Notes: a model not told the origin generated them from the sequence alone. Positions 55 through 42,720 are shown, counted from the first letter of the stretch. The stretch: 47,882 nt of DNA from a virus (IMGVR_UViG_2897375277_000002), one strand, 5' to 3'. Made by a program: numbers and translations.

Positions 55-639
55 TTACTCCCTGACAGGGTTCGTAGGCCACTCAATATCAGGTGCAGTT
101 GATGTATCAACACGGTTCAGCAACACCCGATACTTTTTCCAGGCTTCCAGCAATGAGGTTTCTTCCTCCGTTGCGATTTCCAGATCTACAGCATCCTGAA
201 GTGGCGCAATATGCTCACTGGCTACCTGCATCAGGCTGTTTTTTGTTTCTTCCGCCTCCCGGATCCGGAATAGTTTTTCTGCTTCTGCATCTTTCACCCA
301 GGCTGTGCCGTTCCACTTCTGATATTCCCCTTCCGGCGATAACCAGGTGACATTTTCCGGTAACGGACCGAGTTCAGAAATAAATAACGCGTCCCCTGAT
401 GCCACGTCATAAACTGTTTTACCCCGATGGTCTTCAACAAGATGCCACGATGCATCATCACTGTTGAAAACAGCCACGAAGCCAGCCGGAATATCTGGCG
501 GTGCAATATCGGTACTGTTTGCTGGCAGACCTGTATGAGGCGGAATGTATGCGTCACCTTCACCAATAAATTCATTAGTTCCGGCCAGCAGATTATAAAT
601 TGTTATGGTCCGTGGTTGTTCACTCATTCTGAATGCCAT
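55..639 (-). CDS. tfa: tail fiber assembly protein
   Basis: 194-aa ORF directly downstream of stf; translation [12 protein letters not shown]... matches lambda-type Tfa as I recall it; ATG at 637-639 (cat on + strand). Confidence 0.85.
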
Positions 640-13526: not shown

Positions 13527-14213
13527 TTAACTGGCGGTGACGGTAATTTCTGCAACCGCAGCAAACTCACCATTACCGGATACAACCGGAATGTTGACCT
13601 TGCCTGCAGCAACGCCGTTCACGGTGATGGTCATACCACTGACCGACACGGTGGCTTTTGTTTTATCCGCAGACACCGCACGAAAGCTCTTGTCGGTTAC
13701 GCCCTCCGGCTGGAAGGCCACGGTCAACGTGGTGCTCTGCCCTTTCACCACCGAGGTGCTGGCAGGCGTGACGGTCATGCCGGTTGCCGCTGTTACCGTG
13801 CTGCGATCTTCTGCCATCGACGGACGTCCCACATTGGTGACTTTCACCGTGCGGGTGATCACTTCCTTCGCCGTCACCGCCTTACCGATACTGCTGACCC
13901 AGCCACGGAACACATCGACCGTGCCGTTCGGGAAGCGGATTTTATAGGCACGGGTATCGCCTTCATTAAACCACGCCAGCAGCGCCTGCTGCCCCTGCTC
14001 TCCGGGCATCCACGCCAGCGTGAAGCTGGTATCTCCGGCAGATTTCTGCCCCTGCCCGGTCGCAGTCCAGTCTGCATCTTCATCATCGAGATAGCTGTCG
14101 TCATAGGACTCAGCGGTCAGTTCGCCGGGCGTCAGGTCTTTAACTTTTGCCAGACGCGACCAGTCAACGTCTGAAAGCGGATTCGCATAAGGGTCACCGC
14201 TCCCCTTATAAAC
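13527..14213 (-). pseudogene. V: major tail protein V, C-terminal fragment (gene split by IS insertion)
   Basis: In-frame translation ...[18 protein letters not shown]...AEITVTAS matches lambda gpV from about residue 19 onward; the frame runs into the IS end at 14214. Confidence 0.9.
14206..14213. repeat. 8-bp target site duplication TTATAAAC (left copy)
   Basis: Identical 8-mer flanks both IS ends (14206-14213 and 16913-16920); both copies are V coding sequence. Confidence 0.8.
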
Positions 14214-14243: not shown

Positions 14244-15815
14244 TTACTGAGAGCTCAGATCAACTTTCCAGGGCAACAGATCGCGTACCCGGTTTGCCGG
14301 CCAGTCCTGGATATGTTCAATGACGTAACGCAGCCACTTTTCTGGCTCCACATTGTTCAGACGGCATGTGCCGATCAGCGAGTACAACACCGCCGCATGT
14401 TCACCACCGCTGTCGGAACCCGCGAACATCCAGTTTTTCCGGCCTACGGCCACTCCCCGTAAGGCGTTCTCTGCGATGTTGTTGTCGATTTCCACCCAGC
14501 CATTACTGCAGTACACGTTCAGTGCATCCCACTGTTTCAGCAGGTATGCGAACGCTTTTGCCGTATCTGAGTGACGCGACAGTGTTTTCATCTGTTGCTG
14601 TATCCAGTCATACAGTGACTGCATCAGTGGCGCGGCTCTGGCTTTTCTTGCCGCCAGACGCTGTTCTGCTGAACAGCCCCGGACCTCTGCCTCGATGGCA
14701 TACAGTTCACCGATACGCTGCAGGGCTTCCGTGGTGATGTAGGTGGGCGCTCTTGCATGCACATCGTGGATTTTTCTCCGGGCATGAGCCATACACGCGG
14801 CTTCCGTTATTCTGCCGGATTCGTATAACGCCCGGTAACCACCGTAAGCATCGGCCTGAAGCACACCGCTGTAACCGGCCAGGTGATTTTGTGGATGGAT
14901 ACCTTTCCGGTCCGGACTGTACGCGAACCAGACCGCCGGGGGCATCTGTGAACCGGCGTTACGGTCATCACGGACGTAGACCCACAGCCGGGCTGTCCGG
15001 GTTTTACCGCTGCCCGGCTCCTGGACCGGGACGGGGATATCATCAGCATGGACTTTACCGGGCATCAGCACATACTGGCGCAGGACGTCATACAGCGGCT
15101 CCAGCAGTTCAGCAACAGCACCTGTCCAGCGCCCCAGTGTGGCACGGCTCAGCTCCACTCCCTGACGACGGTATATTTCTGACTGGCGGTATAACGGCAG
15201 ATGGTCTGCATATTTCCCGGTGACAACATGGGCCAGAAGCCCCGCTCCGGCATAACTGCGTGCAATGGGTTTTGAAGGTACTGGTGCCTGCACGATATGG
15301 TCGCACCGGCAACAGGCCTGTTTCGGACGTTGTGTTTCGATAACCTTAAAGGCGCTGCTGATAAGCTCCAGTTGCTCTGACACATCACATCCCAGAGAAC
15401 TGAGTTCACCACCACAGGCAGGACAGCATTCCTCTTCCGGCCGGATAACCCGGGTTTCACGGGGAAGTGAGGCCGGTAACGGTTTACGGGCTGAAGACTG
15501 GCGCAGGGCGGATGGCAGTACCGGGTCATATTGCTCACCCAGCGTTTCCGCCATTTCTTCCTGAAGTGCGCTGATTCGCTCCTGTGCTTCCTGTATCTGC
15601 CGTTCGGTTTTTGCACGAAGTTTTTCTGAGCTTTTACCGAACTGCATACGTTGCAGTTTCGCAACCAGCGCCTTCAGCCGGTTGATTTCGGAAGCATAAG
15701 CCGCCACCCGCTGTGAGAGCAGGCGGTTGTATTCAGCCATCTGGCGGATGGTGTCCTGTTGCGTCTGCAACAGTGCCCGCAGGCGGGCGTTCTCATGAGC
15801 AAGTGAGGTGTCCAT
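14244..15815 (-). CDS. IS66-family transposase (TnpC-like)
   Basis: 523-aa ORF with N-terminal coiled coil and CxxC zinc-finger motifs (CCPACGGE...CCRCDH), typical of IS66 transposases. Confidence 0.85.
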
Positions 15816-15834
15816 ATCCTCACTTTACAACGGG

Positions 15835-16182
15835 TTATATGCGGATTCCAGCGCGTTCCGTTCGTTTCGGGTGCTTCCAGTTGATACCTTCAAGAAGCAT
15901 GGATAACTGAGCCGGAGTAAGGTGCACCTTGCCGTCACGGGTGACTGGCCAGACGAAGCGGCCCCGCTCCAGGCGTTTGGTGAAGAGGCACAGTCCGTCA
16001 CTGTCAGCCCACAACACTTTTATCTGGTCACCCCGGCGTCCGCGGAAGATGAACAGGTGTCCGGAGAACGGGTCATCCTTCAGGACGTTCTGAACTTTTG
16101 ATGCCAGGCCGTTAAAGCCATTTCGCATATCGGTGATACCTGCAACCAGCCAGATACGCGAACCTGCAGGGAGAGATATCAT
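15835..16182 (-). CDS. IS66 Orf2-like accessory protein (TnpB-like)
   Basis: 115-aa ORF MISLPAGSRIWLVAGITDMRNGFNGLA... typical IS66 orf2 product; ATGA overlap with the upstream ORF. Confidence 0.8.
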   Translation of the reverse strand: MISLPAGSRIWLVAGITDMRNGFNGLASKVQNVLKDDPFSGHLFIFRGRRGDQIKVLWADSDGLCLFTKRLERGRFVWPVTRDGKVHLTPAQLSMLLEGINWKHPKRTERAGIRI

Positions 16183-16859
16183 CAGTGGCTGCTCCCTTTT
16201 ATTTCGCGGATAAGTGTCTGTAATAACGCCGGCGTCAGTTTACCTTTAAGCCTGAGAGTTCCGGCCGGCAGAACCAGCTCACAACACAGACTGTCGGACG
16301 GTGTATTTATCTGCTCTGGTTCCTGTGCGGGGGCCGGGATTTTATTATCCGGCTCCGGCGTTAACGTCACGGGAAGCAGTGCCGGCATATTTTTTCCGGA
16401 AGGCAGCAGGCCACCTTTCCGGTATTGATGGCGCCAGTTGAAGAGCAGGTTATCGTTGATTCCGTTTTCCCGGGCGATCTGCGCCACACAGGCTCCGGGC
16501 TGCAGTGACTGCTCCACTAAGGCGATTTTAAACTCATAAGGGAAGTTGGGCCGCCGGGGACGTTTTTTTACCATGGGGGCTTCGGATATAACGGTGCTTT
16601 CAGGACGTACGACTGGTACCGTGGAAAATTGTCCGTAAAGGCAGGCATCAAGTTCCTGCTCCGACATGCCTGCGGGCAAAGGCCACGAAAGGCCAGCTCT
16701 CCGAAAGCGCACGAACATACTACAAACTGTTGATTTTGGTACACCCAGGCGACGCCCGGCCACAACCCGGGGTAAATGTTCTTCAAAGTGAAGACGTAAA
16801 GCTTCAGTGATCCAGGTCCGGTGTTTCATACGATAGTGTCCATTAAAAATGATGGACAT
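16182..16859 (-). CDS. IS66-family accessory protein (TnpA-like, HTH)
   Basis: 225-aa ORF, first gene of the IS operon; longer than typical TnpA so the true start may be internal. Confidence 0.6.
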   Translation of the reverse strand: MSIIFNGHYRMKHRTWITEALRLHFEEHLPRVVAGRRLGVPKSTVCSMFVRFRRAGLSWPLPAGMSEQELDACLYGQFSTVPVVRPESTVISEAPMVKKRPRRPNFPYEFKIALVEQSLQPGACVAQIARENGINDNLLFNWRHQYRKGGLLPSGKNMPALLPVTLTPEPDNKIPAPAQEPEQINTPSDSLCCELVLPAGTLRLKGKLTPALLQTLIREIKGSSH

Positions 16860-26505: not shown

Positions 26506-27054
26506 TCAGACTTGAATACCCTTATCGAATCCCGGTAATAAAAACTGTCCCTGTCTCTCCAGGCGTTTCAGCTTTGCAAGCAATTGAGGTTTTTTCGTTC
26601 TTCCCCAGCGATTGAGCAGCCGGCCAGACATACTGGCGACATCCTTCTCTTTCATATACTCCAGCATTATGGCGTTGCGTTCTGCTTCATAACTTTCGCT
26701 GTACTTACGGAGTTCTGCTGACATCCAGTTAAAGGCATTTATATAGGCCTCTTTAACGGCGTCGGCTTTTGCGCCATTAAATCCCATGACCAGCATAACG
26801 AAGCCACTAAAGTCCATGCGGTAGTAAATCTGTTTCTTGTCGAAAATCCCTAAGTCATTGATTTTTTCGGCAACGCAAAAATGCGCGCTCCGGAAATCTT
26901 CAGAGCAATGACAATTTTTCAGCGCCCTCAATACGTCCGCGTGACGCTTACCAAAAGCCTTTGCGATCTGGAAGGTGTCAGTTACCGGTTGACCTTCTGC
27001 TGCGGTAACTAACTGGCGAAAGTCAAAGTCATGATTCACAATTAATTCATTCAT
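26506..27054 (-). CDS. Rha-family phage regulatory protein
   Basis: Start set at MNELIVNHDFDFRQLVTAAEGQPVTDTFQIAKAFGKRHADVLRAL..., the typical Rha N-terminal signature; ORF track extends 23 codons upstream. Confidence 0.65.
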   Translation of the reverse strand: MNELIVNHDFDFRQLVTAAEGQPVTDTFQIAKAFGKRHADVLRALKNCHCSEDFRSAHFCVAEKINDLGIFDKKQIYYRMDFSGFVMLVMGFNGAKADAVKEAYINAFNWMSAELRKYSESYEAERNAIMLEYMKEKDVASMSGRLLNRWGRTKKPQLLAKLKRLERQGQFLLPGFDKGIQV

Positions 27055-27186
27055 GGCGTTACCTGCTACTTCGAAATGAACCTTTGCCGCACAGGAAACC
27101 AGCCCACCGAGGCTCGCCAGCACTAACTGGTATCCTCAAAGGCCCATTCCAAAGGGTCAGGTTCGGTGGTTATTGTGCGCTGCGGT

Positions 27187-27272: not shown

Positions 27273-27710
27273 TTATTTTAAGCACTGCGTCCTAATGTAC
27301 TCCTGCAAGTAGTTAACCTGCGCGGTTATCCTGTCGATTCCACTTCGGAGACGGTAATAATTGAGTTCAGCATCTGCTGTAAGTCTTGGGCTTTCTCCAT
27401 CGCCCATGCCGCTGGCTCCGGTCTTTGACTTTGCACAGGAGGCGGCGACTTGCAGCCGCTTACGCCCAGCAGAAACATCATCACGGAGACTTTCGATAGT
27501 CGCGTTAGCATCAGCAAGCTCCTTTGTATATCTGGCATCGAGTTCTGCTACATCACGTTGACGCTTCTGCATATCAGCGATGATGGATGTGGCTTTATCG
27601 CGCTGGTCTTTGTAGGCGATGGCGTTATCACGGTAATGATTAACAGCCCATGACAGGCAGACGATGATGCAGATAACCAGAACGGAGATAATCGCGGTTA
27701 CCCTGCTCAT
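27273..27710 (-). CDS. Rz: spanin inner-membrane subunit Rz (i-spanin)
   Basis: [31 protein letters not shown]... N-terminal TM anchor plus coiled coil; immediately downstream of the endolysin with a 4-nt overlap. Confidence 0.85.
27326..27511 (-). CDS. Rz1: spanin outer-membrane lipoprotein Rz1 (o-spanin), embedded in Rz in the +1 frame
   Basis: [36 protein letters not shown]...: lipobox (LLGVSG-C) and Pro-rich mature region, wholly inside Rz. Confidence 0.75.
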
Positions 27711-28204
27711 TGTTGCCCCCACAAACAGACCTCACGCTCAATCTCACGACGAGTCATCAGGCCTTTCCATTGCTTACCGCCAGCGTATGTCCAGCGACGT
27801 AGCTGGTCACATGCGCCCTTGATATCGCCCTGGTTTATTTTGCGAAGAAGAGTAGATGCTCTGAAATTGCCTGCGCCCACGTTATAGACGAACGAGTAAA
27901 GAGCGCCGCGCGTTGTTTCCGGTATATCGACTTTGATGTACGGGTTAATTTGTCTGGCGACAGTGGCAAGGTCTTTATTCAGGAGGGCTTTGCATTCTGC
28001 TTCGGTATACGTTTTACCGAGCATAATGTCTTTTCCGGTGTGCCCGTAACATACAGTCCATACGCCAACGATATCTTTATATGGTATGTAGCTGACACCT
28101 TCCAGACCATCGTCACCACTCGGACCGGTGATAAGCACAGACGCTATGGCAACAGCCCCACCACCAATAGCAGCTGCAACAGCCTTGCGTAATGATGGCG
28201 ACAT
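27707..28204 (-). CDS. R: SAR endolysin (phage-21-type lysozyme R)
   Basis: 165-aa [33 protein letters not shown]... with weakly hydrophobic Gly/Ala-rich N-terminal SAR domain; matches phage 21 R as recalled. Confidence 0.85.
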
Positions 28205-28419
28205 TATTCACCTCTCGCAGCCTTACGCTTGTCTTCTCTGATTTTGAAGTACAGATTTGTCAGATAAGTCAGGAAGCCCAGAACCAGACTTCCCAGCACA
28301 CCAATAGCAGCCCACTGTGATGGACTGACCTGATCAAGCCACTGTAAAAACCAGTAGCCAGCACTGCCTGCGGAGGTGCCGTAGGCAATGCCCGTTGTTA
28401 ACTTGTCCATGGATTTCAT
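28204..28419 (-). CDS. S: pinholin S (phage-21-type, dual-start motif)
   Basis: Start set at [71 protein letters not shown] (71 aa; Met1 and Met4 dual starts); ORF track extends 30 codons upstream. Confidence 0.85.
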
Positions 28420-28608
28420 AGCCTCACCTCCGCAAATAACGGATGGTGTACACGGTTCGGAACGAAGAGGGAAAGGTATAGAAGTTACATTAGCGTAAGG
28501 CTTGAACATCTATTCAAAAAGAAAAACGCCAGCGATTATTCTGGCGTAGCTGAAAGCATCATACAATTATCAAATACGAAAATTAGAAAATCATTAAAAC
28601 GCATCACG

Positions 28609-29340
28609 TTACATCATTTCTTTTTCTAAAAAAAATCTTGATGAATATTGATGGGGAGGAACACCAAAATATCTTCTGAAAACACTTACAAAATATGACG
28701 TGTTTTCATAACCGCATATCTCAGCAACTTTTCCAACAGAATATAAATTGTAGCTTAATAACCTTTCCGCCATCACCATTCGCTCTTCAAGAATTAATTT
28801 ACTAAATGATAAGCCTTCGTGCTTTAATTTTCTTTTTAACAGGCTTTCACTCAGATACAGCCTTGAAGATATATCACAAAGTCTCCATGCTGCAGATATA
28901 TCCGTGTGAATAATAGCCTTAACTTTACTTCCTAAACTATTAAGACATCCAAATAAAAAACTTTGCACTATTTTCTCTGAAGATAAGATAGCAAGACATG
29001 CAAGTGATATTTGATTTCTAACAACATCCACAGTTCTGCCATCACAATTCAAGCATGCAATCAAGTTCTTTAACAATGAAAAATCTTCACATTCCACCAT
29101 CAAGTATGCCGGATAAAACCTTCTTACAGAAAAAGGTGAGAGTGTGTTGCTTTTAAAGAAATCATTAACTGTTTTCTCTTCAACATCTACGATCATTACA
29201 TGATCTATATTTGATGAAAAAAAATCTTTTAAATTGTAATCAATGAGAACAGCACTTCCTTTTTTAAACAAAATATCTTCTTTACCAATTCGGACATCAA
29301 ACGAGTTCAACACCAAAATGATAGAACATATGTATGGCAT
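28609..29340 (-). CDS. AraC/XylS-family transcriptional regulator (cargo)
   Basis: C-terminal AraC-type HTH (VGKVAEICGYENTSYFVSVFRRYFGVPPHQY); ATG at 29340 preceded by AGGTGG; visibly AT-rich coding sequence; ORF track start is 29349 (GTG). Confidence 0.75.
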   Translation of the reverse strand: MPYICSIILVLNSFDVRIGKEDILFKKGSAVLIDYNLKDFFSSNIDHVMIVDVEEKTVNDFFKSNTLSPFSVRRFYPAYLMVECEDFSLLKNLIACLNCDGRTVDVVRNQISLACLAILSSEKIVQSFLFGCLNSLGSKVKAIIHTDISAAWRLCDISSRLYLSESLLKRKLKHEGLSFSKLILEERMVMAERLLSYNLYSVGKVAEICGYENTSYFVSVFRRYFGVPPHQYSSRFFLEKEMM

Positions 29341-29691
29341 ATTATCCACCTGATATCATTGGGGTTACACCAGGTAAGTATAGGTGGAAAATCAATATTC
29401 GCCAGTTCAACAATAAGGAAAATCTCATTGCATCACAAGTATAAAATCATGTATTTAACTCACAAAAACAAATTATTAAACTAATCTGTTATATTATATA
29501 TAGCTGCGTGGAATCATAATATTATATATTTTGACTGACATGTTTACCAAATTTAAATTGCATCTCAATGGTTTGTTCAGCGTAAACAGAGTTTTTATAC
29601 AAACTGACACTCTGGGTATCATAGTGTAGTTTTTACGATTGTAAATATCCTGCATGCAGGAACTCATCCTTTTGGATGATATCGCATACAA

Positions 29692-30651
29692 TTAATTTAC
29701 CATCAGTCTTAGAGCCAGTTCGTCCGGATAGGGATCGAAGTAATTCTGTGTAAGCAAGTAATCATTAGGATACTCACCCAGATAATGCTTCAGCAGAGTC
29801 AACGGCGCAAGAAGAGGTAATGTGCCAGAACGATAGTTAAGTATAACCTCGCTCAACTCTTTACGCTGGCGTGTACTTAAGTAGTTACTAAAATACCCCT
29901 GTATATGCATCAGCACATTCGTGTGATTTTTACGTGATGCAGGTTTTCTGAGAATCGCCATCAGCTTATCACGATACACCTCAAAGTATGATTCAAGGTC
30001 CGCCCACTCGTGTATTGCAGCCACAAATGGTCCCATATCTTTATAGCCTGCCTGACTATGCGCCAACAACTGAAGCTTATAACGACTATGAAAAGCTAAT
30101 AACTCTCTTCTTGATAATTTCTCCTTGTAAAGGTGATTGAGCTCATGCAAAGCAAAAACTCTTTCAACAAAATTCTCACGAAGCACTGGATCATGTAATC
30201 GCCCATCCTCTTCAACCGGTAGCCAGGAAAACTTTTCCATCAAAGTGCTCGTAAATAGTCCCACTCCATCTTTACGACCTCGATTACCATTTTCATCATA
30301 GACACGCACGCGCTCCATGCCACAGCTGGGAGATTTAGCACAAACCACAAACCCCGATACATCCTTTAATTTGTCCATATAAGAACGACTAAACTCTGTC
30401 ATTCTCTCTGTCACATCCTCATTCTGGTCGTGGCTGAAACACATCCGTATATTTCCTTGCGTCGAGCGCACAAGACGTAGAGCAGGACGCGGAACTGGCA
30501 GCCCTATAGCCATTTCCGGACATACTGGTCTGAATGTTACCCATTCCACTAATTTGTCCATTAAAAAGTCAGCTCTTTTGTGACCACCATCAAAACGAAC
30601 AGCAGAACCGGCCAAACAACCGCTGATTCCAATCACAGGTTTTTTTATCAT
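29692..30651 (-). CDS. DUF523/DUF1722-like fusion protein (YbgA-like C-terminus; function unknown)
   Basis: 319-aa ORF MIKKPVIGISGCLAGSAVRFDGGHKR...; N-terminus resembles DUF523 (TudS-like Cys-containing) proteins, C-terminal half YbgA-like; strong SD (GGGGAGAAT) before ATG. Family assignment from memory only. Confidence 0.55.
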   Translation of the reverse strand: MIKKPVIGISGCLAGSAVRFDGGHKRADFLMDKLVEWVTFRPVCPEMAIGLPVPRPALRLVRSTQGNIRMCFSHDQNEDVTERMTEFSRSYMDKLKDVSGFVVCAKSPSCGMERVRVYDENGNRGRKDGVGLFTSTLMEKFSWLPVEEDGRLHDPVLRENFVERVFALHELNHLYKEKLSRRELLAFHSRYKLQLLAHSQAGYKDMGPFVAAIHEWADLESYFEVYRDKLMAILRKPASRKNHTNVLMHIQGYFSNYLSTRQRKELSEVILNYRSGTLPLLAPLTLLKHYLGEYPNDYLLTQNYFDPYPDELALRLMVN

Positions 30652-30843
30652 ATTCTCCCCCTTGACTAATTCATTAACACATAAACTGTGTAGTGCACGG
30701 AATAAATTGCCTTTCTGGCGTCATCACTGACAATTTTTCTGTTATGGACTATTCCTAATATAGTATGAAAGTTCTTTAAGTGATCGGTCGTAATCATCTA
30801 TCTTTCATACTTACTCTCAACTATCAAAAGTACAGGATTTATT

Positions 30844-31368
30844 ATGAAGTTATGGCCTGTGTTGACTGGCATTGCACTCTCTTTCACTCTTATAGCATGT
30901 AAGGCCCCGACACCACCTAAAGGTGTGCAGCCGATTACAAATTTTGACGCCAACCGCTACCTCGGAAAATGGTATGAAATAGCTCGCCTCGAGAACCGGT
31001 TCGAACGTGGTCTGGAACAGGTCAGCGCTACCTATGGAAAACGGAACGACGGAGGGATTCGTGTACTTAACCGTGGATACGATCCAACGAAAAATAAATG
31101 GAGCGAGAGCGAAGGTAAAGCATACTTTACTGGAGATACTAAAACTGCAGCGTTGAAGGTTTCGTTTTTTGGCCCCTTCTATGGTGGCTATAATGTAATC
31201 AAACTGGATGATGAGTATAAGTATGCTCTTGTCAGTGGTCCGAACAGAGAATACCTATGGATTCTGGCAAGGACCCCAACTATTCCAGATAAAGTAAAAG
31301 CAGACTATGTGCGAACCGCTCAAAAGTTGGGATTCAATGTCAATGAATTATTATGGGTTAAACAATAA
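30844..31368 (+). CDS. bacterial lipocalin (Blc-like outer-membrane lipoprotein)
   Basis: 174-aa ORF with lipoprotein signal (LIAC lipobox) and lipocalin motifs (NFDANRYLGKWYEIARLENRFERG; KVSFFGPFYGGYNVI); oriented opposite to late transcription. Confidence 0.8.
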   Translation: MKLWPVLTGIALSFTLIACKAPTPPKGVQPITNFDANRYLGKWYEIARLENRFERGLEQVSATYGKRNDGGIRVLNRGYDPTKNKWSESEGKAYFTGDTKTAALKVSFFGPFYGGYNVIKLDDEYKYALVSGPNREYLWILARTPTIPDKVKADYVRTAQKLGFNVNELLWVKQ

Positions 31369-31396
31369 AATCCCTACCCGAAATAATACTTATTAG

Positions 31397-31423
31397 AAAA
31401 AAACCAGCCTTTGGGGAGGCTGG
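31397..31423 (-). terminator. intrinsic terminator downstream of Q (tR'-like)
   Basis: Minus strand CCAGCCT-CCCCAA-AGGCTGG followed by TTTTTTT; about 100 nt downstream of the Q stop, where lambda has PR'/6S RNA/tR'. Confidence 0.6.
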
Positions 31424-31523
31424 CTAAATCAGGAAACAAGCTGTTATATGATAATAACTACGTTGCGATTCCAACATTTAAAATGTTAGACTAATGAGAA
31501 TCAGACAGCAACTTTTCCTTTAA
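31424..31523 (-). promoter_or_regulatory. expected late promoter PR' / Q-utilisation region (not resolved to motifs)
   Basis: Position between Q stop and the tR'-like terminator; AT-rich; -35/-10 not confidently assigned. Confidence 0.35.
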
Positions 31524-31901
31524 TTATTTCGAACAATCAGCATCCATCTCCAATCGGAGATCCAACACCATCAGCATACCCTCCACTACGCCCTCAGCTT
31601 TCTGGAGCATCCTGCCAACCCAACAATCAGATCGCCCATGCTTACGTGCAAGCGCCATAAAAGTCATGCCGCCGACATAATAGTCCACCAATAAATCATG
31701 CAAATCGCTGTTGTTCTTTTTCAGACGGGCCATGCACCCGCAAATGATCATCGCGTCATCGTCACAACATTGCGGGCGAGATTTTACTTTTGAAGGAATT
31801 AATCCCTTAAAACCGGCGGCAATGGACGACCAGGTCACATCTTCATGATTATTAGCCGCCCACGCTCCCCAACGCTCAAGAACCATCTGAATATCACGCA
31901 T
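31524..31901 (-). CDS. Q: late-gene antiterminator Q (DLP12 QuuD / phage-82-type)
   Basis: Start set at [56 protein letters not shown]... matching DLP12 QuuD as recalled; ORF track extends 5 codons upstream. Confidence 0.85.
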
Positions 31902-33605: not shown

Positions 33606-34403
33606 TTACTCTCTGGAAGCTTTTCTTATCTCTCTTGGTGTTATATTAAAACGATTATGAAATCTTTCAGTAAAACGAGAAGGACACTTATAACCATTTT
33701 CTCTGGCAATCTCGCTTATAGGTTTTACCGTCGTTTGTATAGCAGACAACGCATTATTTAACCTCACATCGTCCAGTATACTTTGGAAACTTACCCCCTC
33801 GCTTGCTAGACGGCGATGTAATGTAGAAACAGAAATGTAGAGATATCGAGCAACCTTGTTTGCTGTCCATTTTGTGCCGGGTTCGGATAGCAGCAGGTTA
33901 TAACAACGACTTATCAATGATTGTTTACTATATGATAAAAGTAAATGATTAACATGATTCACTCCTAACGAAAGTAGAACGCCCATTGCTAAGTGCTCCT
34001 GAATTTTAGTTGAGAAGCCTCGGGAAACAGATGTTTTTAGTTGCTCCCAACAATATATTAACTCAGGATTCTGAGGTAAAAAGAAACTTGTTTTGTTACG
34101 TATTTGATCAGTTACCGTATAAAGTTTTTGGAAACTCTCAATTAAATCAATGGGTAAGTAAAGCATTTCTGCAAGATAAAGCCCTGCTTCAGGATAATTC
34201 TCAATATAAAATTCATAACCACAAGGAAATAATATTATTTGATTATTATCAACAGTTAAAGTATGCGTCTCCCAATTGATAACTTTCTTTCCCTGACGGA
34301 TACGACACAAAGCTGGCATAAGAGGCTTAACCCTATGAATCTCATGATGTTTATGCATCCGTATTTCTTCGATCTTTAAGTTAGTCTTACCTCTTGCCAG
34401 CAT
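33606..34403 (-). CDS. ybcM: AraC-family transcriptional regulator YbcM-like
   Basis: 265-aa ORF with C-terminal AraC HTH ([36 protein letters not shown]...); matches DLP12 YbcM as recalled; AT-rich. Confidence 0.8.
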
Positions 34404-34412
34404 ACTCTCACC

Positions 34413-34964
34413 CTACTTTATCTCATAAACTGGTGTTATCTCAGCGGTTGCGATTTTATTAGCATTAAGCATATAACCAACTAACGCTCCGCTGGAGTTA
34501 GAATCTACAGGAATCTTTTCAGTTTTTAGAGCCCATACTTTAAACTGGTAATGATGTGGTTTATCTCCTTTAGGAGGACATGCGCCACCAAACCCAGCAT
34601 AGCCAAAATCATTTCGGCCTTGAACAGCACCAGTCGGCAGTTTTGTTCCATCACGTCTCCCTGCATCAACGGGCAAATATGTTATTGTTGCTGGAATATT
34701 AACAACAGTCCAATGCCACCAACCACTGCCTGTAGGTGCATCTGGATCATATACAGTTACGGCAAAGCTTTTGGTACCTTCAGGAACACCAGACCAGGTT
34801 AATGAGGGCGATGTATTACCACCTTCACACCCAAATCCAGAAAAGACATGAGACGTTGTAAGTTGCTCTCCTGTTTTTATTTCATTACTAGTGACCTGAA
34901 ATGCTGCAGCCTGCGCAGAAAATGTTATGAATGCCAATACAGTTGAAACGATAAGTGTTTTCAT
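34413..34964 (-). CDS. ybcL: periplasmic PEBP/RKIP-family protein YbcL-like
   Basis: 183-aa ORF with signal peptide (MKTLIVSTVLAFITFSAQA) and PEBP-like motifs (VYDPDAPTGSGWWHW); matches DLP12 YbcL. Confidence 0.85.
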   Translation of the reverse strand: MKTLIVSTVLAFITFSAQAAAFQVTSNEIKTGEQLTTSHVFSGFGCEGGNTSPSLTWSGVPEGTKSFAVTVYDPDAPTGSGWWHWTVVNIPATITYLPVDAGRRDGTKLPTGAVQGRNDFGYAGFGGACPPKGDKPHHYQFKVWALKTEKIPVDSNSSGALVGYMLNANKIATAEITPVYEIK

Positions 34965-35180
34965 AAAAACCTCTTTGTTATGACCTATCGTTATTTTATT
35001 TGATATTCCTTTATCTCATTATGCATAAAGGCGCAATTTTTATGCAAAAGCAATCACAATTGTACCCCCAACCCAATTATTTGCCACAATATACACAAAG
35101 CACATTGATACTATCTAAAAACTCTGCTTTATTATTAGTAATACCTACGAAAGTCGGTGTTATTTTTTAACCTATCATTC

Positions 35181-35230
35181 AAAATACGTGACATACACCA
35201 TTTTGCTCATAATAATTTGTCACGTATTTT
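35181..35230. repeat. 13-bp perfect inverted repeat AAAATACGTGACA ... TGTCACGTATTTT with 24-bp spacer
   Basis: Read directly from the + strand in the AT-rich spacer between ybcL and ybcK. Confidence 0.7.
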
Positions 35231-35428
35231 CAGTATTTGAATCTGCGACCAAGAGTTCTCACCTAACAAATGATTAAGATTGTATAGCTCATTTACTACC
35301 CCAATACAGCCGTACAAAACTCGCTTGTGGGAGCAAACAAAGTAATTACCCATTAAGTTTCGTCAAAGATAATTAATTCTGTCTTGCACTTTATCACCAT
35401 AGCATAACTTAAAATCCGAGATCATTAT

Positions 35429-36955
35429 TTAGAAATAAATCTCACCATCAACCATATATTTGAGAGCACTTATCGCCTGCTGGGCGGATATTACTTTCAT
35501 TAAAGGGTAGTGTTTAAAAACAATGCCATTCATAAAATAGATATCACAGGTTTTATTATCCGTATTAATTATGATTTTTTCGAATGTTTTATAGGCAAGT
35601 GTACGGCATAACTCTCGTCCATTTTTACTGGTTAAGTCAATAGCATAAAAATCACTGAATGAATTTACACCTTTACTCTTCAAAGTTTTCAATGATACCG
35701 AAGCCCTTCGTAATTCCTTATCTAATAGTCTTATTTTCTCTACTATAGCGGTAACTTCAGGCGCGACAGACAATGCAACGATTAAATTATTAATTTTCAT
35801 CTGAAGCTCAATAATTTTTAACTCTAAAGTTTCATTAGCATCTTTCTTGTTTTCAACTGGTTGAATTTTGCTACAATTAAAAAGCAATTCATTAATGATA
35901 TTATAATCAACCAAATCTCTTTTTATTGATGGCCTGTCACATCGATGTAATCTTCTCATCGGACAAACATAATAGCCATGCAAACTTCCAGATACCGCAT
36001 GAACAATCATGGTATTACCACAAGCCTCACACTTCATAACTGTTCGAAGTAGATTTATTAGCATAGGATTCTTGCTACTATTGCTAATACCAAAAGGTGC
36101 CAACCGAATTTCCTGTACAGCGTAAAACAAATCATCTGATATGACTCTGGGATAATAGCCAGCGATTTCACTTATCCCTTTCCCTCTTGCACGATATGAA
36201 GGTACGCATATACCTATCAGAGCTTTATTCGCTAATAATTTTTCAATTACAGAAGGTCCCCATGCACTTTCTTTTCCTGAGAAATTCTTTACAGCATGAT
36301 CATTTAAATACTTGGCTATTGCATTCAATGAGCGCCTTTCCATCCTGAGTTTAAAAATTAGCTCAATAGTTTTCACCCTGTCGGGGTCTGGAACAAAAGC
36401 CGTTCTTTTGTCATCTAAGGAGAGCCATCTCGGACAAGACGCCGTCATAATCGTACCTGATTCCAGTGCATCCTGCCGTTTTTTCTTCCATGATAATTTA
36501 ACCCGACTTGACTTTATCTCGCTTTCTTCATTTGCCCTTTGTGCTATAAGTATGGCTTTTATTAATGAATATGGCTCATTCAAAGAGTCAATATTATAGA
36601 CTGTATTGTCGCAAAGAGTTATAACATCAATACCGTGATTCAAAATCAATTTCAGACGTTCAATCGCTTCACCGACTTTTTCTCTTGAAAGTCTGTCCAG
36701 ACTTTCAACTAACAATGTAGTTCCTGGCAATATATAACCATGCTCTATAGCATCTAAAAATTCCGAAAAAGCTCCTGATTGTGCATGCTTTCCTTTGAAT
36801 GCACTTAATCCTAAATCTTCATATGTTATGGTATCAAGATAATAATCACTATTTACCTTTAACCATTCAGCAATAAGTCTTCTCTGTCGGTTTAATGAGT
36901 CACCAGACATCTGACCTGGTGATGAAAATCGCATATATGCTATGGCTTTTTTCAT
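35429..36955 (-). CDS. ybcK: large serine recombinase (YbcK-like)
   Basis: 508-aa ORF; N-terminal resolvase-like catalytic domain (AIAYMRFSSPGQ... with Ser) plus large C-terminal domain with Cys cluster; AT-rich. Confidence 0.8.
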   Translation of the reverse strand: MKKAIAYMRFSSPGQMSGDSLNRQRRLIAEWLKVNSDYYLDTITYEDLGLSAFKGKHAQSGAFSEFLDAIEHGYILPGTTLLVESLDRLSREKVGEAIERLKLILNHGIDVITLCDNTVYNIDSLNEPYSLIKAILIAQRANEESEIKSSRVKLSWKKKRQDALESGTIMTASCPRWLSLDDKRTAFVPDPDRVKTIELIFKLRMERRSLNAIAKYLNDHAVKNFSGKESAWGPSVIEKLLANKALIGICVPSYRARGKGISEIAGYYPRVISDDLFYAVQEIRLAPFGISNSSKNPMLINLLRTVMKCEACGNTMIVHAVSGSLHGYYVCPMRRLHRCDRPSIKRDLVDYNIINELLFNCSKIQPVENKKDANETLELKIIELQMKINNLIVALSVAPEVTAIVEKIRLLDKELRRASVSLKTLKSKGVNSFSDFYAIDLTSKNGRELCRTLAYKTFEKIIINTDNKTCDIYFMNGIVFKHYPLMKVISAQQAISALKYMVDGEIYF

Positions 36956-40420: not shown

Positions 40421-40530
40421 TATTAATTCCCATTGGTATTACAATGAATAAATAATAGCAATGCGTATTAATCATAACAATAGCAAAACGTGTTTTGACC
40501 ATCAATACGCAAGCGTATAAATTAAAACTT
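40421..40530. promoter_or_regulatory. OR region with putative PR (minus strand: -35 TTGTTA at 40475-40480, 17-nt spacer, -10 TATTAT at 40452-40457) and AATAGCAA(T) operator motifs
   Basis: Hexamers and motif copies (40454-40462, 40479-40486) read directly; the same motif recurs in the putative OL. Confidence 0.55.
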
Positions 40531-41223
40531 ATGAAAAAAGAAACTCTTGCTGATCGCTTAAACCTAGCGATGGAACAATCTGGAATGTCTCAAGGCGCTC
40601 TTGCAAAGGCGTCTGGCGTAGCTCAACCCACAATCTGGAGACTGACAAGCGGCAACGCGCGCGGCTCAACAAAAATTGTTGAAATAGCTAATGCATTGGG
40701 TGTTCGAACAGAGTGGCTCTCATCAGGCATAGGCCCGATGAGAAATGACGGTCAACAATTAGGGAAGCCTACTGCCAACCATCCCAAATACTTCAAGATT
40801 GACGTTCTTGATATAGAAGTGAGTGCCGGGCCGGGAGTCATCAACCGTGAGTTTGTAGAAGTTCTACGCTCGGTTGAGTACTCGTTTGACGATGCTCGTC
40901 ACATGTTCGATGGTAGGAAGGCAGAAAATATCCGCATCATTAACGTACGCGGTGACAGCATGTCAGGAACGATTGAACCTGGTGATCTTCTATTCGTTGA
41001 TATCACGGTTAAATCTTTCGACGGTGATGGTATCTATGCGTTTCTGTACGACGACACAGCCCATGTAAAGCGCCTGCAAATGATGAAGGATAAGCTGCTG
41101 GTTATCTCTGATAACAAAAGCTACTCACCGTGGGACCCGATCGAGAAAGATGAGATGAACCGGGTATTTATCTTCGGGAAAGTTATTGGGAGCATGCCGC
41201 AGACGTATAGGAAGCATGGATAG
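40531..41223 (+). CDS. cI: CI-type repressor (N-terminal HTH, C-terminal S24 LexA-like peptidase domain)
   Basis: MKKETLADRLNLAMEQSGMSQGALAKASGVAQPTIWRL... with C-terminal ...GDSMSGTIEPGDLLFVD... (Ser-Lys dyad type). ORF track starts at a TTG at 40495; ATG 40531 preferred, likely leaderless. Confidence 0.85.
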   Translation: MKKETLADRLNLAMEQSGMSQGALAKASGVAQPTIWRLTSGNARGSTKIVEIANALGVRTEWLSSGIGPMRNDGQQLGKPTANHPKYFKIDVLDIEVSAGPGVINREFVEVLRSVEYSFDDARHMFDGRKAENIRIINVRGDSMSGTIEPGDLLFVDITVKSFDGDGIYAFLYDDTAHVKRLQMMKDKLLVISDNKSYSPWDPIEKDEMNRVFIFGKVIGSMPQTYRKHG

Positions 41224-41303
41224 TACCAATTAAAAATTATCAACCGGGCATTGTGCTCATTCAGTAAAACAACTTAATTATTCATTTTAGAATGGAGAAC
41301 TTA

Positions 41304-42365
41304 ATGGATACTTTAAAATATGAGAAATTCTCTGATTTTGATCACAATGACCCATTTTTTGACTCTTTAAAAAAAGATTATAAAGAGTTTCCTCTTTGGT
41401 TAGAAAAAAAAGCCAGAGAAGGAGAATCAGCTTATGTGCTCTATGATGACAAGCATAAAATCGAAGGTTTTATGTATCTAAAAGAAAATGATGATGCAAA
41501 TGACATTAATCCAGCGCTCCCACCAGGACGTCATCTAAAGATAGGAACATTCAAATTTGAATCTAAAGGCACCCTTCGCGGACAACGATTTCTAAAAAAA
41601 GCGTTTGACCATGCATTTTCATCAAAATCTGATGATATTTATGTTACTGTTTTCGACAAACACGTCCATCTAATAAAACTTTTCCAAACGTACGGATTTT
41701 ACATTCATGGTGAAAAAGAAACACATAACGGGAAAGAGTTTGTATATGCGAGGTCTTTGCATGAGCCTTATGGTGATATTTTATTAGATTACCCTCGAAT
41801 AATGACATCAAGGGCCAACAAATATTTACTGGCGATTTATCCCGAATATCACACTAGACTATTCCCTGATTCAAAACTTGTAAATGAATCACCAGATATT
41901 GTCAAAGATATATCCCATGCTAACAGCATTCATAAAATTTACATATGTGGAATGCGTTCTGTGATGGGAATGAAAAGAGGAGATATCATTGTCATCTATA
42001 GAACCGGAGACAAAAAAGGGCCAGCTCGCTATCGTTCTGTAGCCAGTACATTATGTGTAGTTGAGAGCGTAAAAAATATTTCTGAATTTTTAAGCGAAGA
42101 TAGTTTTGTAGACTATTGTATTCGTTTTAGCGTATTTTCTGAAGATGAACTCAGAAAAATCTATAAAGAACGTCGATACCCTTTCATTATAAGATTCACA
42201 TACAATCTGTCTTTGCCAAAGAGACCCAATCGTGCTATTTTAATAGATCATGTGGGGCTAAATGGTTCGCGTGCATTCCGATGGAGTCACTTTAAACTCA
42301 CAAATGAGCAGTTCTTAAAGATCATCGAGTTAGGCAAGATAAATGAAAGTTTTATTATCCATTAA
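41304..42365 (+). CDS. GNAT-like acetyltransferase domain protein with uncharacterised C-terminal domain (rex-position cargo gene 1)
   Basis: ORF 41292..42365; ATG at 41304 has an SD (GGAGAA). Segment LRGQRFLKKAFDHAF...DDIYVTVFDKHVHLIKLFQTYGFYIHGE resembles GNAT motifs A/B; AT-rich; no lambda counterpart. Confidence 0.6.
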   Translation: MDTLKYEKFSDFDHNDPFFDSLKKDYKEFPLWLEKKAREGESAYVLYDDKHKIEGFMYLKENDDANDINPALPPGRHLKIGTFKFESKGTLRGQRFLKKAFDHAFSSKSDDIYVTVFDKHVHLIKLFQTYGFYIHGEKETHNGKEFVYARSLHEPYGDILLDYPRIMTSRANKYLLAIYPEYHTRLFPDSKLVNESPDIVKDISHANSIHKIYICGMRSVMGMKRGDIIVIYRTGDKKGPARYRSVASTLCVVESVKNISEFLSEDSFVDYCIRFSVFSEDELRKIYKERRYPFIIRFTYNLSLPKRPNRAILIDHVGLNGSRAFRWSHFKLTNEQFLKIIELGKINESFIIH

Positions 42366-42720
42366 GCCTGAGTTTGCAGAAAAAATATTGAACGGAACAA
42401 AGCGGTTCGAGTTTCGTAAAGGTATATTCAAAAATCCGCAAATTAGCACCGTTGTTATTTATGCCACGATGCCATTAGGTAAAGTTGTTGGTCAATTCCG
42501 TATTGAATCAATACTAAGTGACGAACCGGAATCTCTTTGGAAAAAGACGGAAAAACACGCAGGTATTTCTAAGCAATTTTATGACTCATATTATTCAGGT
42601 AGAGAAAAGGCCTACGCAATAAAAATTGGTGAAGTGGAAAGATATAAAGAACCAATTCCTATCTCTGCTCTAGGTAGTAATATTAAGCCACCACAATCAT
42701 ATCTTTACCTACCTGCGTAA
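42343..42720 (+). CDS. ASCH-domain (PUA-like) protein (rex-position cargo gene 2)
   Basis: 125-aa ORF MKVLLSIKPEFAEKILNGTKRFEFRKG... with the ASCH N-terminal signature; overlaps gene 1 by 23 nt. Confidence 0.65.
   Translation: MKVLLSIKPEFAEKILNGTKRFEFRKGIFKNPQISTVVIYATMPLGKVVGQFRIESILSDEPESLWKKTEKHAGISKQFYDSYYSGREKAYAIKIGEVERYKEPIPISALGSNIKPPQSYLYLPA

Follow-up and report, generated by a model that had tools for sequence, protein, structure and literature searches.

A Lipocalin, a RudS-Type tRNA 4-Thiouridine Desulfidase, and an AraC-Family Regulator Encoded in a Probable Composite Moron Island Between Q and S of a DLP12/Lambda-Like Prophage

Introduction

The interval between the late antiterminator gene Q and the first lysis gene S is a known cargo site of lambdoid prophages. 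Stx (Shiga toxin) phages carry stxAB in this slot, co-oriented with late transcription, and the DLP12 prophage of Escherichia coli K-12 carries nmpC, which is antisense to Q; nmpC also occupies the Q-S slot of prophage Perceval of strain LF82. Here we describe the cargo of this slot in IMGVR_UViG_2897375277_000002, a 47,882-nucleotide (nt) stretch of viral DNA (hereafter, the window), which as a whole represents a DLP12/lambda-like prophage extending from tail-fibre genes to the integrase gene at the window end. Its Q-S slot (28420-31523) contains a three-gene island that encodes a Blc-like lipocalin lipoprotein, a protein assigned to the RudS-type tRNA 4-thiouridine desulfidases, and an AraC-family regulator.

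Several systems related to this island have been described. The RudS enzymes were defined as TudS-DUF1722 fusions that strip 4-thiouridine (s4U) from tRNA, and overexpression of these enzymes reduced tRNA s4U 4.7- to 26-fold (Jamontas et al., NAR 2024, PMC11417400). One of the six enzymes assayed in that study is RudS_vir, the product of H3V29_gp66 of phage 1H12, which lowered tRNA s4U in E. coli under overexpression; the same study describes the Salmonella pathogenicity island 2 genes orf242-orf319, a comparable chromosomal rudS locus, and makes no mention of the lipocalin gene, the AraC gene, or the Q-S position (PMC11417400). More than 50% of 19 infant-gut lambdas were reported to carry blc as a moron; in the parts of that article considered here, the gene is treated alone, as a membrane-biogenesis moron, and no connection is drawn with rudS or with an ancestor on the chromosome (Mathieu et al., 2020, PMC6969025). 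PatE, PsrA, and PsrB, the AraC-like regulators of the glutamate decarboxylase (GAD) acid-resistance island encoded by prophages of enterohaemorrhagic E. coli, constitute an established class.

The comparisons described below make it likely that the window carries a composite moron island built from two independently acquired pieces, a lipocalin-rudS pair and an araC-type gene; the anatomy of the locus also fits Q-dependent late transcription of rudS and the araC-type gene.

Position and Composition of the Island

All three genes were found at the coordinates and on the strands given by the original prediction, and its domain guesses (AraC, DUF523/DUF1722, and Blc-like lipocalin) proved right in Pfam and NCBIfam searches. 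The araC-type gene, a PatE/YdeO-like regulator gene, occupies positions 28609-29340 of the minus strand (732 nt, 243 amino acids) and is separated from rudS (29692-30651, minus strand, 319 amino acids) by a 351-bp spacer (29341-29691) with a guanine-cytosine (GC) content of 0.31. The lipocalin gene, hereafter blc (30844-31368, plus strand, 174 amino acids), is transcribed divergently from rudS across a spacer of 192 bp (30652-30843, GC 0.34) and is thus antisense to late transcription. Upstream of the island on the late strand lies Q (31524-31901, minus strand, 125 amino acids; PF06530 Phage_antitermQ, 2.5e-51), which belongs to the QuuD/DLP12 type and shows 89% nt identity to K-12 quuD, and downstream lies S (28204-28419, minus strand, 71 amino acids; PF04971, 3.4e-35), which encodes an S21-type pinholin and is the first lysis gene.

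The homology to K-12 DLP12 detected by BLASTN stops at 31542, the end of Q, and restarts at 28430, the start of S (essD), and thus the exchangeable cargo is the whole stretch between these points, including the pR'-tR' leader. In K-12, nmpC is located between the homologous Q and S genes, and the assignment of the island to the position of stx and nmpC was therefore correct. The RefSeq annotation of the same region in E. coli gives the order intD ... ybcK-ybcL-ybcM-ybcN-ninE-ybcO-rusA-ylcG-Q, followed by genes for a lipocalin, a YbgA family protein, and a helix-turn-helix protein, and then by essD and the lysozyme gene. Of 80 related prophage loci, 79 have a Q gene of the QuuD type alongside rudS.

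The island is more AT-rich than its surroundings, as had been proposed: its GC content is 0.382 vs. 0.506 for the window, which places it in the lowest 5% of 3.1-kb windows. The composition is uneven within the island (0.318 for araC, 0.434 for rudS, and 0.442 for blc), and the flanking genes have values of 0.484 (Q) and 0.491 (S). With nmpC in the K-12 slot and the module present in about 18% of E. coli genomes, the three genes are accessory rather than phage housekeeping genes. They share with morons a deviant GC content and the absence from the otherwise homologous K-12 DLP12, which has nmpC instead. The arrangement is similar to that of Stx phages in the use of the Q/tR'-S slot and in the orientation of rudS and araC along late transcription, and to that of K-12 DLP12 in the antisense orientation of blc, which corresponds to that of nmpC; however, the cargo of the window is unrelated to either and includes no toxin or porin. 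Two other candidates for comparison, orf6/orf10 of prophage phiv142-3 from avian pathogenic E. coli and the small RNA HnrS, are unrelated to the island.

The RudS-Type Desulfidase

The rudS product combines the domains PF04463 (2-thiouracil desulfurase, the former DUF523; residues 7-149, 3e-40) and PF08349 (residues 192-309, 2e-40), which is the TudS-DUF1722 fusion characteristic of RudS, and it also matches the TudS structure 6Z92 (2e-4). Over its entire length of 319 residues, it shares 93% identity with RudS_vir, and it retains the [4Fe-4S] ligands Cys12, Cys44, and Cys110, the positions that are listed for RudS_vir and RudS_ST (Table 1 of PMC11417400). The catalytic residues, as read from the sequence, are likewise present (C44-P-E46, R55, and S107-P-S109-C110); residues E46, R55, S107, and S109 were matched to E51, R60, S111, and S113 of RudS_KT by offset rather than by direct alignment. 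The gene is preceded by AAGGGGGAG immediately 5' of its ATG. By domain content and active-site residues, the middle gene of the island is a predicted RudS-type tRNA 4-thiouridine desulfidase gene. The label given to it in the original prediction, a DUF523/DUF1722-like protein, named the domains correctly and was incomplete in function, given that a 93%-identical phage orthologue has been assayed as an s4U desulfidase. The 1H12 gene shares with the window gene not only protein length, domain fusion, cysteines, and the catalytic Glu, Arg, and Ser residues, but also the neighbors blc, araC, Q, and S; the two are nevertheless different alleles, with modules that are 89.7% identical at the nt level.

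4-Thiouridine at position 8 of tRNA (s4U8) is the chromophore for ultraviolet A (UVA) light, which cross-links the tRNA and sets off growth delay and the stringent response. As a [4Fe-4S] desulfidase, the window RudS would turn s4U8 back to uridine and is thereby expected to damp this UVA/stringent-response brake.

Chromosomal Origin of the Lipocalin-rudS Pair

Blc works in envelope lipid homeostasis. The lipocalin of the window matches Lipocalin_2 (PF08212) at 7e-44 and exceeds the threshold of the NCBIfam Blc subfamily NF007786 (316 bits vs. a cut-off of 267, residues 1-174), and its matches to Blc structures in PDB are at 3.5e-69 for 3MBT and at 1e-68 for 3MBT/1QWD. Its translated signal, MKLWPVLTGIALSFTLIAC19-K, ends in the lipobox L-I-A-C19 and has no Asp at position +2. 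The protein is thus a predicted Blc-like outer-membrane lipoprotein of the lysophospholipid-binding Blc type, and it would act in envelope lipid homeostasis in a Blc-like manner. However, it is only 60% identical to K-12 Blc vs. 77-82% to a rudS-linked lipocalin paralogue of Enterobacter, Serratia, and Leclercia; therefore, the phage gene represents this paralogue and is not an orthologue of the ampC-adjacent chromosomal blc of E. coli.

Chromosomal RudS homologues of exactly 319 amino acids and 67-77% identity were identified in Citrobacter, Klebsiella, Enterobacter, Serratia, Pectobacterium, and other genera. In 38 of 62 chromosomal rudS loci, the gene for a 174-aa lipocalin is divergent from a merR gene (MlrA/BluR-like), and rudS follows the latter; in three further loci, including that of Citrobacter sedlakii, the lipocalin gene is divergent from rudS without an intervening merR. 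The C. sedlakii spacer comprises 188 bp vs. 192 bp in the window. A divergent lipocalin gene is thus found at 41 of the 62 loci in total, and an AraC gene at none of them. The original prediction had treated the AraC regulator and the secreted lipoprotein as a typical combination; the conserved pair is instead formed by the lipocalin and RudS, and AraC is a separate moron. At 16 chromosomal loci, rudS closes a SnoaL-SDR-amine oxidase-DUF1365-CFA synthase-DUF2878-DUF3833 cluster, which in Citrobacter and Klebsiella (L004-L009, L019, and others) comprises nine genes: those for SnoaL, SDR, amine oxidase, DUF1365, cyclopropane-fatty-acid (CFA) synthase, DUF2878, a 175-aa protein with no Pfam match, and DUF3833, followed by rudS. 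Two copies of rudS (L019 and L020) are present in Citrobacter braakii ATCC 51113.

The prevalence of the divergent arrangement (41 of 62 loci), together with the greater similarity of the phage lipocalin to the linked paralogue, indicates that blc and rudS constitute an ancestral chromosomal unit that was acquired without MerR. On the evidence of gene order and protein similarity, the source of the phage blc-rudS pair was a chromosomal locus of enterobacteria, and the MerR gene was lost. The chromosomal loci of Enterobacter, Leclercia, Serratia, and others share with the phage pair the divergent arrangement, the protein lengths (174 and 319 amino acids), and 67-82% identity, whereas the phage copy is more AT-rich, has no MlrA/BluR-like MerR, and is located inside a predicted Q-dependent late operon. 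The phage spacer, which contains no merR gene and is 90% identical between two phage alleles, shows no conservation with the Citrobacter chromosomal spacers outside the coding ends, and thus no regulatory motif can be transferred to it from these genomes. The 43-codon open reading frame (ORF) 30666-30797 in this spacer is cut by a stop codon in the alignment with 1H12 and was rejected as probably not a gene. MerR-linked rudS loci have been treated as light-inducible, with reference to the UVA-induced reduction of s4U in Enterobacter cloacae (PMC11417400).

The AraC-Family Regulator as a Separate Piece

The araC-type gene starts at an ATG at 29340, 5' of which there is an AGGTGG Shine-Dalgarno sequence, and RefSeq gives the same 732-nt gene. 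Its product contains a C-terminal double helix-turn-helix (HTH_18, 1e-14; HTH_AraC, 2e-11), for which the closest solved structure is that of GadX (3MKL, 2.6e-20). The best full-length match in NCBIfam is YdeO, at 127.5 bits vs. a cut-off of 348 and thus below the equivalog level, and the identity to both K-12 YdeO and AppY is 32%. The protein belongs to phrog_1450, a PHROG to which no function is assigned, and its homologues make up 28 clusters, a small family confined almost entirely to E. coli.

A higher identity, 54% (52-54%), was found with ECs_0287, which is encoded at the end of the Sakai prophage Sp1, and in this comparison conservation is markedly higher in the DNA-binding half than toward the N-terminus. 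ECs_0287 is the sole AraC-type regulator of the Sp1/CP-933H (OI-8) element and, by this position, presumably corresponds to PatE (Z0321), an RpoS-dependent activator of gadE/hdeA. The window regulator resembles PatE, PsrA, and PsrB as a prophage-borne, very AT-rich AraC/XylS protein of about 245 amino acids, the likeness to PsrA and PsrB being one of type rather than of compared sequences. It is not an orthologue of PatE, YdeO, or AppY (54% to the presumed PatE and 32% to the other two), and it is encoded in the Q-S slot, whereas the PatE type is found at a prophage end. We suggest that, like PatE and PsrB, the AraC product probably targets promoters of the host, with a GAD/hdeA-type acid-fitness regulon as the best guess.

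The araC-type gene differs from the other two genes in its distribution and variation. Relatives of 64% and 57% identity occur alone between Q and the holin gene in other lambdoid prophages, in which Q belongs to other families (PF03589 and PF06323). In comparison with the 1H12 allele, araC is the most diverged gene of the module (83% identity at the amino acid level), and the rudS-araC spacer, with 65% identity and indels, is its most divergent part; the 65-codon ORF 29494-29691, which falls within this indel-rich segment, was rejected as a gene. In a set of 61 IMG/VR prophages that have essentially the same rudS/blc allele, the araC allele of 80-90% identity was accompanied by a 177-aa lysozyme in 14 of 14 cases, and the allele of at least 95% identity by a signal-arrest-release (SAR) endolysin in 42 of 47. 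Since the araC alleles follow the lysis cassette and identity in the spacer drops to 65%, a recombination joint is likely to lie in the spacer between rudS and araC, and the three-gene island appears to be composite. The distribution of alleles and lone relatives identifies the AraC gene as a separate Q-S moron linked to the lysis cassette.

An alternative is that the AraC product is a dedicated local regulator of blc and rudS, which replaced MerR and brought in a new signal, so that the three genes form one functional unit. The phage copy indeed has no merR gene, araC is located directly downstream of rudS on the same strand, and the three genes occur together in 988 genomes vs. 993 with araC. 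However, the close AraC relatives occupy the Q-S slot without blc or rudS, the araC alleles reassort over a constant rudS/blc allele, the GC content of araC (0.32) departs from that of rudS and blc (0.43-0.44), and the two spacers share no repeated operator-like motif; moreover, the nearest characterized relatives (PatE, PsrB, YdeO, and GadX) act on host acid-resistance promoters. We therefore regard a dedicated regulator as unlikely and favor a composite island, in which the rudS-araC spacer is possibly the araC promoter region. Two sigma-70-like matches of 10/12 are found in this spacer (29645-29618 and 29550-29521), in a region where such matches are not above chance.

Late Transcription Signals

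A terminator scan identified the proposed Q-proximal terminator on the late strand (hairpin 31425-31402). This tR'-like intrinsic terminator (31395-31425, minus strand; AGCCAGCC-loop-GGCTGG followed by T7) is located 100 nt downstream of Q, and the folding energy of the 101-nt leader around it is -27.2 kcal/mol (z = -4.3). Of 80 related prophage loci, 79 have this terminator with no more than two mismatches, and phage 1H12 and the Qin prophage of BL21 carry an identical copy. The second intrinsic terminator (28517-28547, minus strand, hairpin 28547-28526; ACGCCAG-loop-CTGGCG followed by a T-run) separates araC from S. Phage 1H12 has an identical terminator, and 59 of 80 related loci contain it; it provides the island with the downstream terminator of its own that is typical of morons; it would halt autonomous rudS/araC transcripts ahead of the holin gene.

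A candidate late promoter pR' was recognized by reading the sequence at 31483-31511 of the minus strand (TTGCTG-17 nt-TAACAT); it was not among the matches of a consensus promoter scan. With one mismatch allowed, the motif was found in 77 of the 80 related prophage loci. Three loci were examined one by one (L001, L002, and L083, the last being that of BL21(DE3)), and in these a single change falls in the spacer and the hexamers are intact; the -10 element of phage 1H12 is TAATGT. In a search of the whole window at Rfam gathering thresholds, the sole match was IS009, outside the island, and a search of 28300-31700 at E <= 1 yielded, apart from noise, only a match below threshold on the tR' hairpin.

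Both rudS and araC are in the late-strand cargo location, from pR'/tR' to S, and blc is on the opposite strand. In a lysogen, transcripts from pR' would end at tR', and autonomous rudS/araC transcripts, if any, would end at the pre-S terminator. On induction, Q-modified RNA polymerase from pR' would pass both terminators; late transcription would then cross blc antisense and reach rudS and araC as the first late genes, ahead of S. Read-through of these two genes under the control of Q, as previously suggested from the position alone, thus fits the anatomy of the locus, and so does lysogenic conversion by the island genes.

The same anatomy allows RudS to be viewed mainly as an auxiliary late gene of benefit to the phage: s4U would be stripped during lytic growth, which would avert UVA cross-linking and the stringent shutdown of translation after induction by sunlight or UV, and the enzyme might also salvage thiolated nucleotides. 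Consistent with this explanation, rudS is located on the late strand right after tR' and ahead of S, the MerR regulator of the chromosomal rudS loci has been lost, and the pR'-tR' segment travels with rudS in 79 of 80 loci. In addition, overexpressed RudS_KT shortened the UVA-induced growth delay, and of the RudS enzymes assayed, it was RudS_vir with which the lag on 4-thiouracil was shortest (PMC11417400). On the other hand, the late phase may be too brief for remodeling of the tRNA pool, and the retention of the lipocalin gene, although it is antisense to late transcription, suggests selection in the lysogen. Defective prophages also keep parts of the module, such as blc in BL21 Qin, and the window prophage, in which an IS66-family element is inserted among the tail genes, keeps all three genes intact. 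A predominant phage benefit is therefore a tenable but rather improbable account.

Distribution, Alleles, and Selection

The 3.2-kb module was detected at a coverage of at least 80% in 988 of 5426 complete E. coli genomes (about 18%), and its single genes in 993 (araC), 1064 (rudS, about 20%), and 1042 (blc) of these genomes. The statement that E. coli lacks RudS (PMC11417400) is thus to be qualified. Among isolated phages, the module is present in IdasGreatGrand with 99.3% nt identity and, with about 89.7%, in 1H12 and eleven infant-gut phages named "Lambda_ev". The blc moron of the infant-gut lambda-like coliphages is the same gene in the same phages, since records of the LR595xxx and LR597xxx series are among the module matches.

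The window and 1H12 proteins are 93% identical for rudS and 97% for blc. Synonymous divergence (dS) between the two alleles is 0.37 for araC, 0.29 for rudS, and 0.20 for blc, and the corresponding ratios of nonsynonymous to synonymous divergence (dN/dS) are 0.25, 0.11, and 0.06. All three genes are thus under purifying selection. Their products belong to PHROGs of unknown function. Some copies are broken, through insertion sequences (IS3 or IS1) in several genomes, truncation of rudS in BL21, and disruption of araC in a few IMG/VR loci, and most are intact. Such damage might suggest that the island genes are decaying passengers that have no current function; the intact ORFs in about 1000 genomes, the dN/dS values of 0.06-0.25 at dS of 0.2-0.37, and the conserved catalytic residues make this the least credible of the explanations considered. 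In the Qin prophage of BL21(DE3) (L083, NC_012971.2, 1588189-1589052), Q and an intact blc-like lipocalin gene are kept, araC is gone, and rudS is reduced to a 147-nt remnant cut by IS3. BL21(DE3) was the host of the published tRNA s4U measurements and of the UVA assay (PMC11417400), and the remnant makes this standard expression host a natural rudS-null strain, which is relevant to the published RudS assays. Two short contigs (L071, with rudS and araC, and L076, with blc and rudS) of the "Candidatus Nanosynbacter" metagenome-assembled genome JARKOR01 contain the E. coli module at 94-100% protein identity and almost certainly reflect binning contamination.

Other Features of the Prophage

Downstream of S, the gene at 27707-28204 (minus strand, 165 amino acids) encodes a SAR-type endolysin with an N-terminal hydrophobic SAR-like segment in its translation, and the same gene is annotated as endolysin in IdasGreatGrand and 1H12. 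A Rha-family (Phage_pRha and ORF11CD3) anti-repressor-like gene (26506-27123, minus strand) is located between the lysis cassette and the terminase genes. The IS66-family element of the tail-gene region (14244-16859, minus strand) comprises genes for an HTH transposase (16182-16859), TnpB (15835-16182), and a DDE transposase (14244-15815) and adjoins a 160-aa ORF (13527-14009); the prophage is probably defective for tail assembly. The IS009 match in Rfam (98-296, minus strand, 227 bits) is within the tail-fibre-assembly end. A second AT-rich cargo island (33606-36955, minus strand, GC 0.35-0.42) is located in the nin region and contains, as in K-12 DLP12, ybcM (a second AraC-family regulator of 265 amino acids with a weak ExsA_N match), ybcL (PEBP/Raf-kinase-inhibitor-like), and ybcK (a large serine recombinase).

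An AT-rich two-gene cassette (41292-42720, plus strand, GC 0.35) directly follows cI (40495-41223), at the site of rexAB, and encodes a 357-aa protein with no Pfam match and a 125-aa ASCH-domain protein (42343-42720). These proteins match the PADLOC candidate defence pair PDC-M11A (2e-133) and PDC-M11B (7e-52). Given the presence of this pair near cI and the location of the Q-S island, an AT-rich accessory island at a prophage hot spot, one could assume that the island itself is an anti-phage defence or superinfection-exclusion locus. However, none of its three proteins matches a PADLOC model (E <= 0.01) and all of them belong to clear non-defence families, which renders a defence role very improbable. 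ASCH proteins have been reported as erasers of N4-acetylcytidine in tRNA (2026 preprint), and the prophage may thus carry two tRNA-modification erasers, RudS and the ASCH protein.

Discussion

The blc moron, the RudS_vir assay, the PatE/PsrB class, and the Q-S cargo site are already known, and the window copy adds one more example to these kinds. Within the literature searched, three points are new: the composite nature of the island, the derivation of the lipocalin-rudS pair from a MerR-controlled chromosomal locus, and the presence of a prophage rudS in about 20% of complete E. coli genomes.

The explanation that we consider likely, a composite island of two independently acquired pieces in which rudS and araC would be read by Q-dependent transcription, has to be weighed against several observations, all of which count against it. 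The activity of RudS_vir is known from overexpression only and was weaker than that of the other RudS enzymes (PMC11417400). The chromosomal relatives of the phage rudS are only 67-77% identical to it and more GC-rich, so that the true donor is unsampled. ECs_0287 is equated with PatE because it is the only AraC-type regulator of Sp1/OI-8, and the PatE-like choice of acid-resistance promoters is a best guess extrapolated from 54% identity. Within the island, 14 sigma-70-like matches vs. 12.2 +/- 3.7 in shuffled sequence are not above chance, and a search for direct or inverted operator-like repeats shared across the island spacers returned only short chance-level matches. Finally, the near-constant co-occurrence of the two pieces in E. 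coli (988 whole modules vs. 993 araC carriers) could also mean that they work jointly.

A bolder proposal can be made from the same location, namely that erasure of tRNA modifications is a deliberate prophage strategy: RudS, as the first Q-dependent late gene and free of MerR, would strip s4U so that sunlight-induced lysis escapes the stringent response, and together with the ASCH protein it would constitute an "epitranscriptome-editing" toolkit. This is a speculative and doubtful idea; if true, temperate coliphages would carry such a toolkit in roughly a fifth of E. coli.

Under the explanation that we favor, a composite moron island, the lipocalin-RudS pair offers a testable case of a host stress module rewired into a phage late operon, and the AraC gene would add one more prophage regulator to the PatE/PsrB class, which reprogrammes host acid resistance and virulence. 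The island is not a new kind of biology; its value lies in the experimental access that it offers to the erasure of tRNA s4U by a phage late operon. About one in five complete E. coli genomes encodes RudS on lambdoid prophages, in the slot used for the toxin in Stx phages. Thus, differences between strains in the level of tRNA s4U, in the growth delay under UVA, and in stringent-response behavior may be explained by prophage content.

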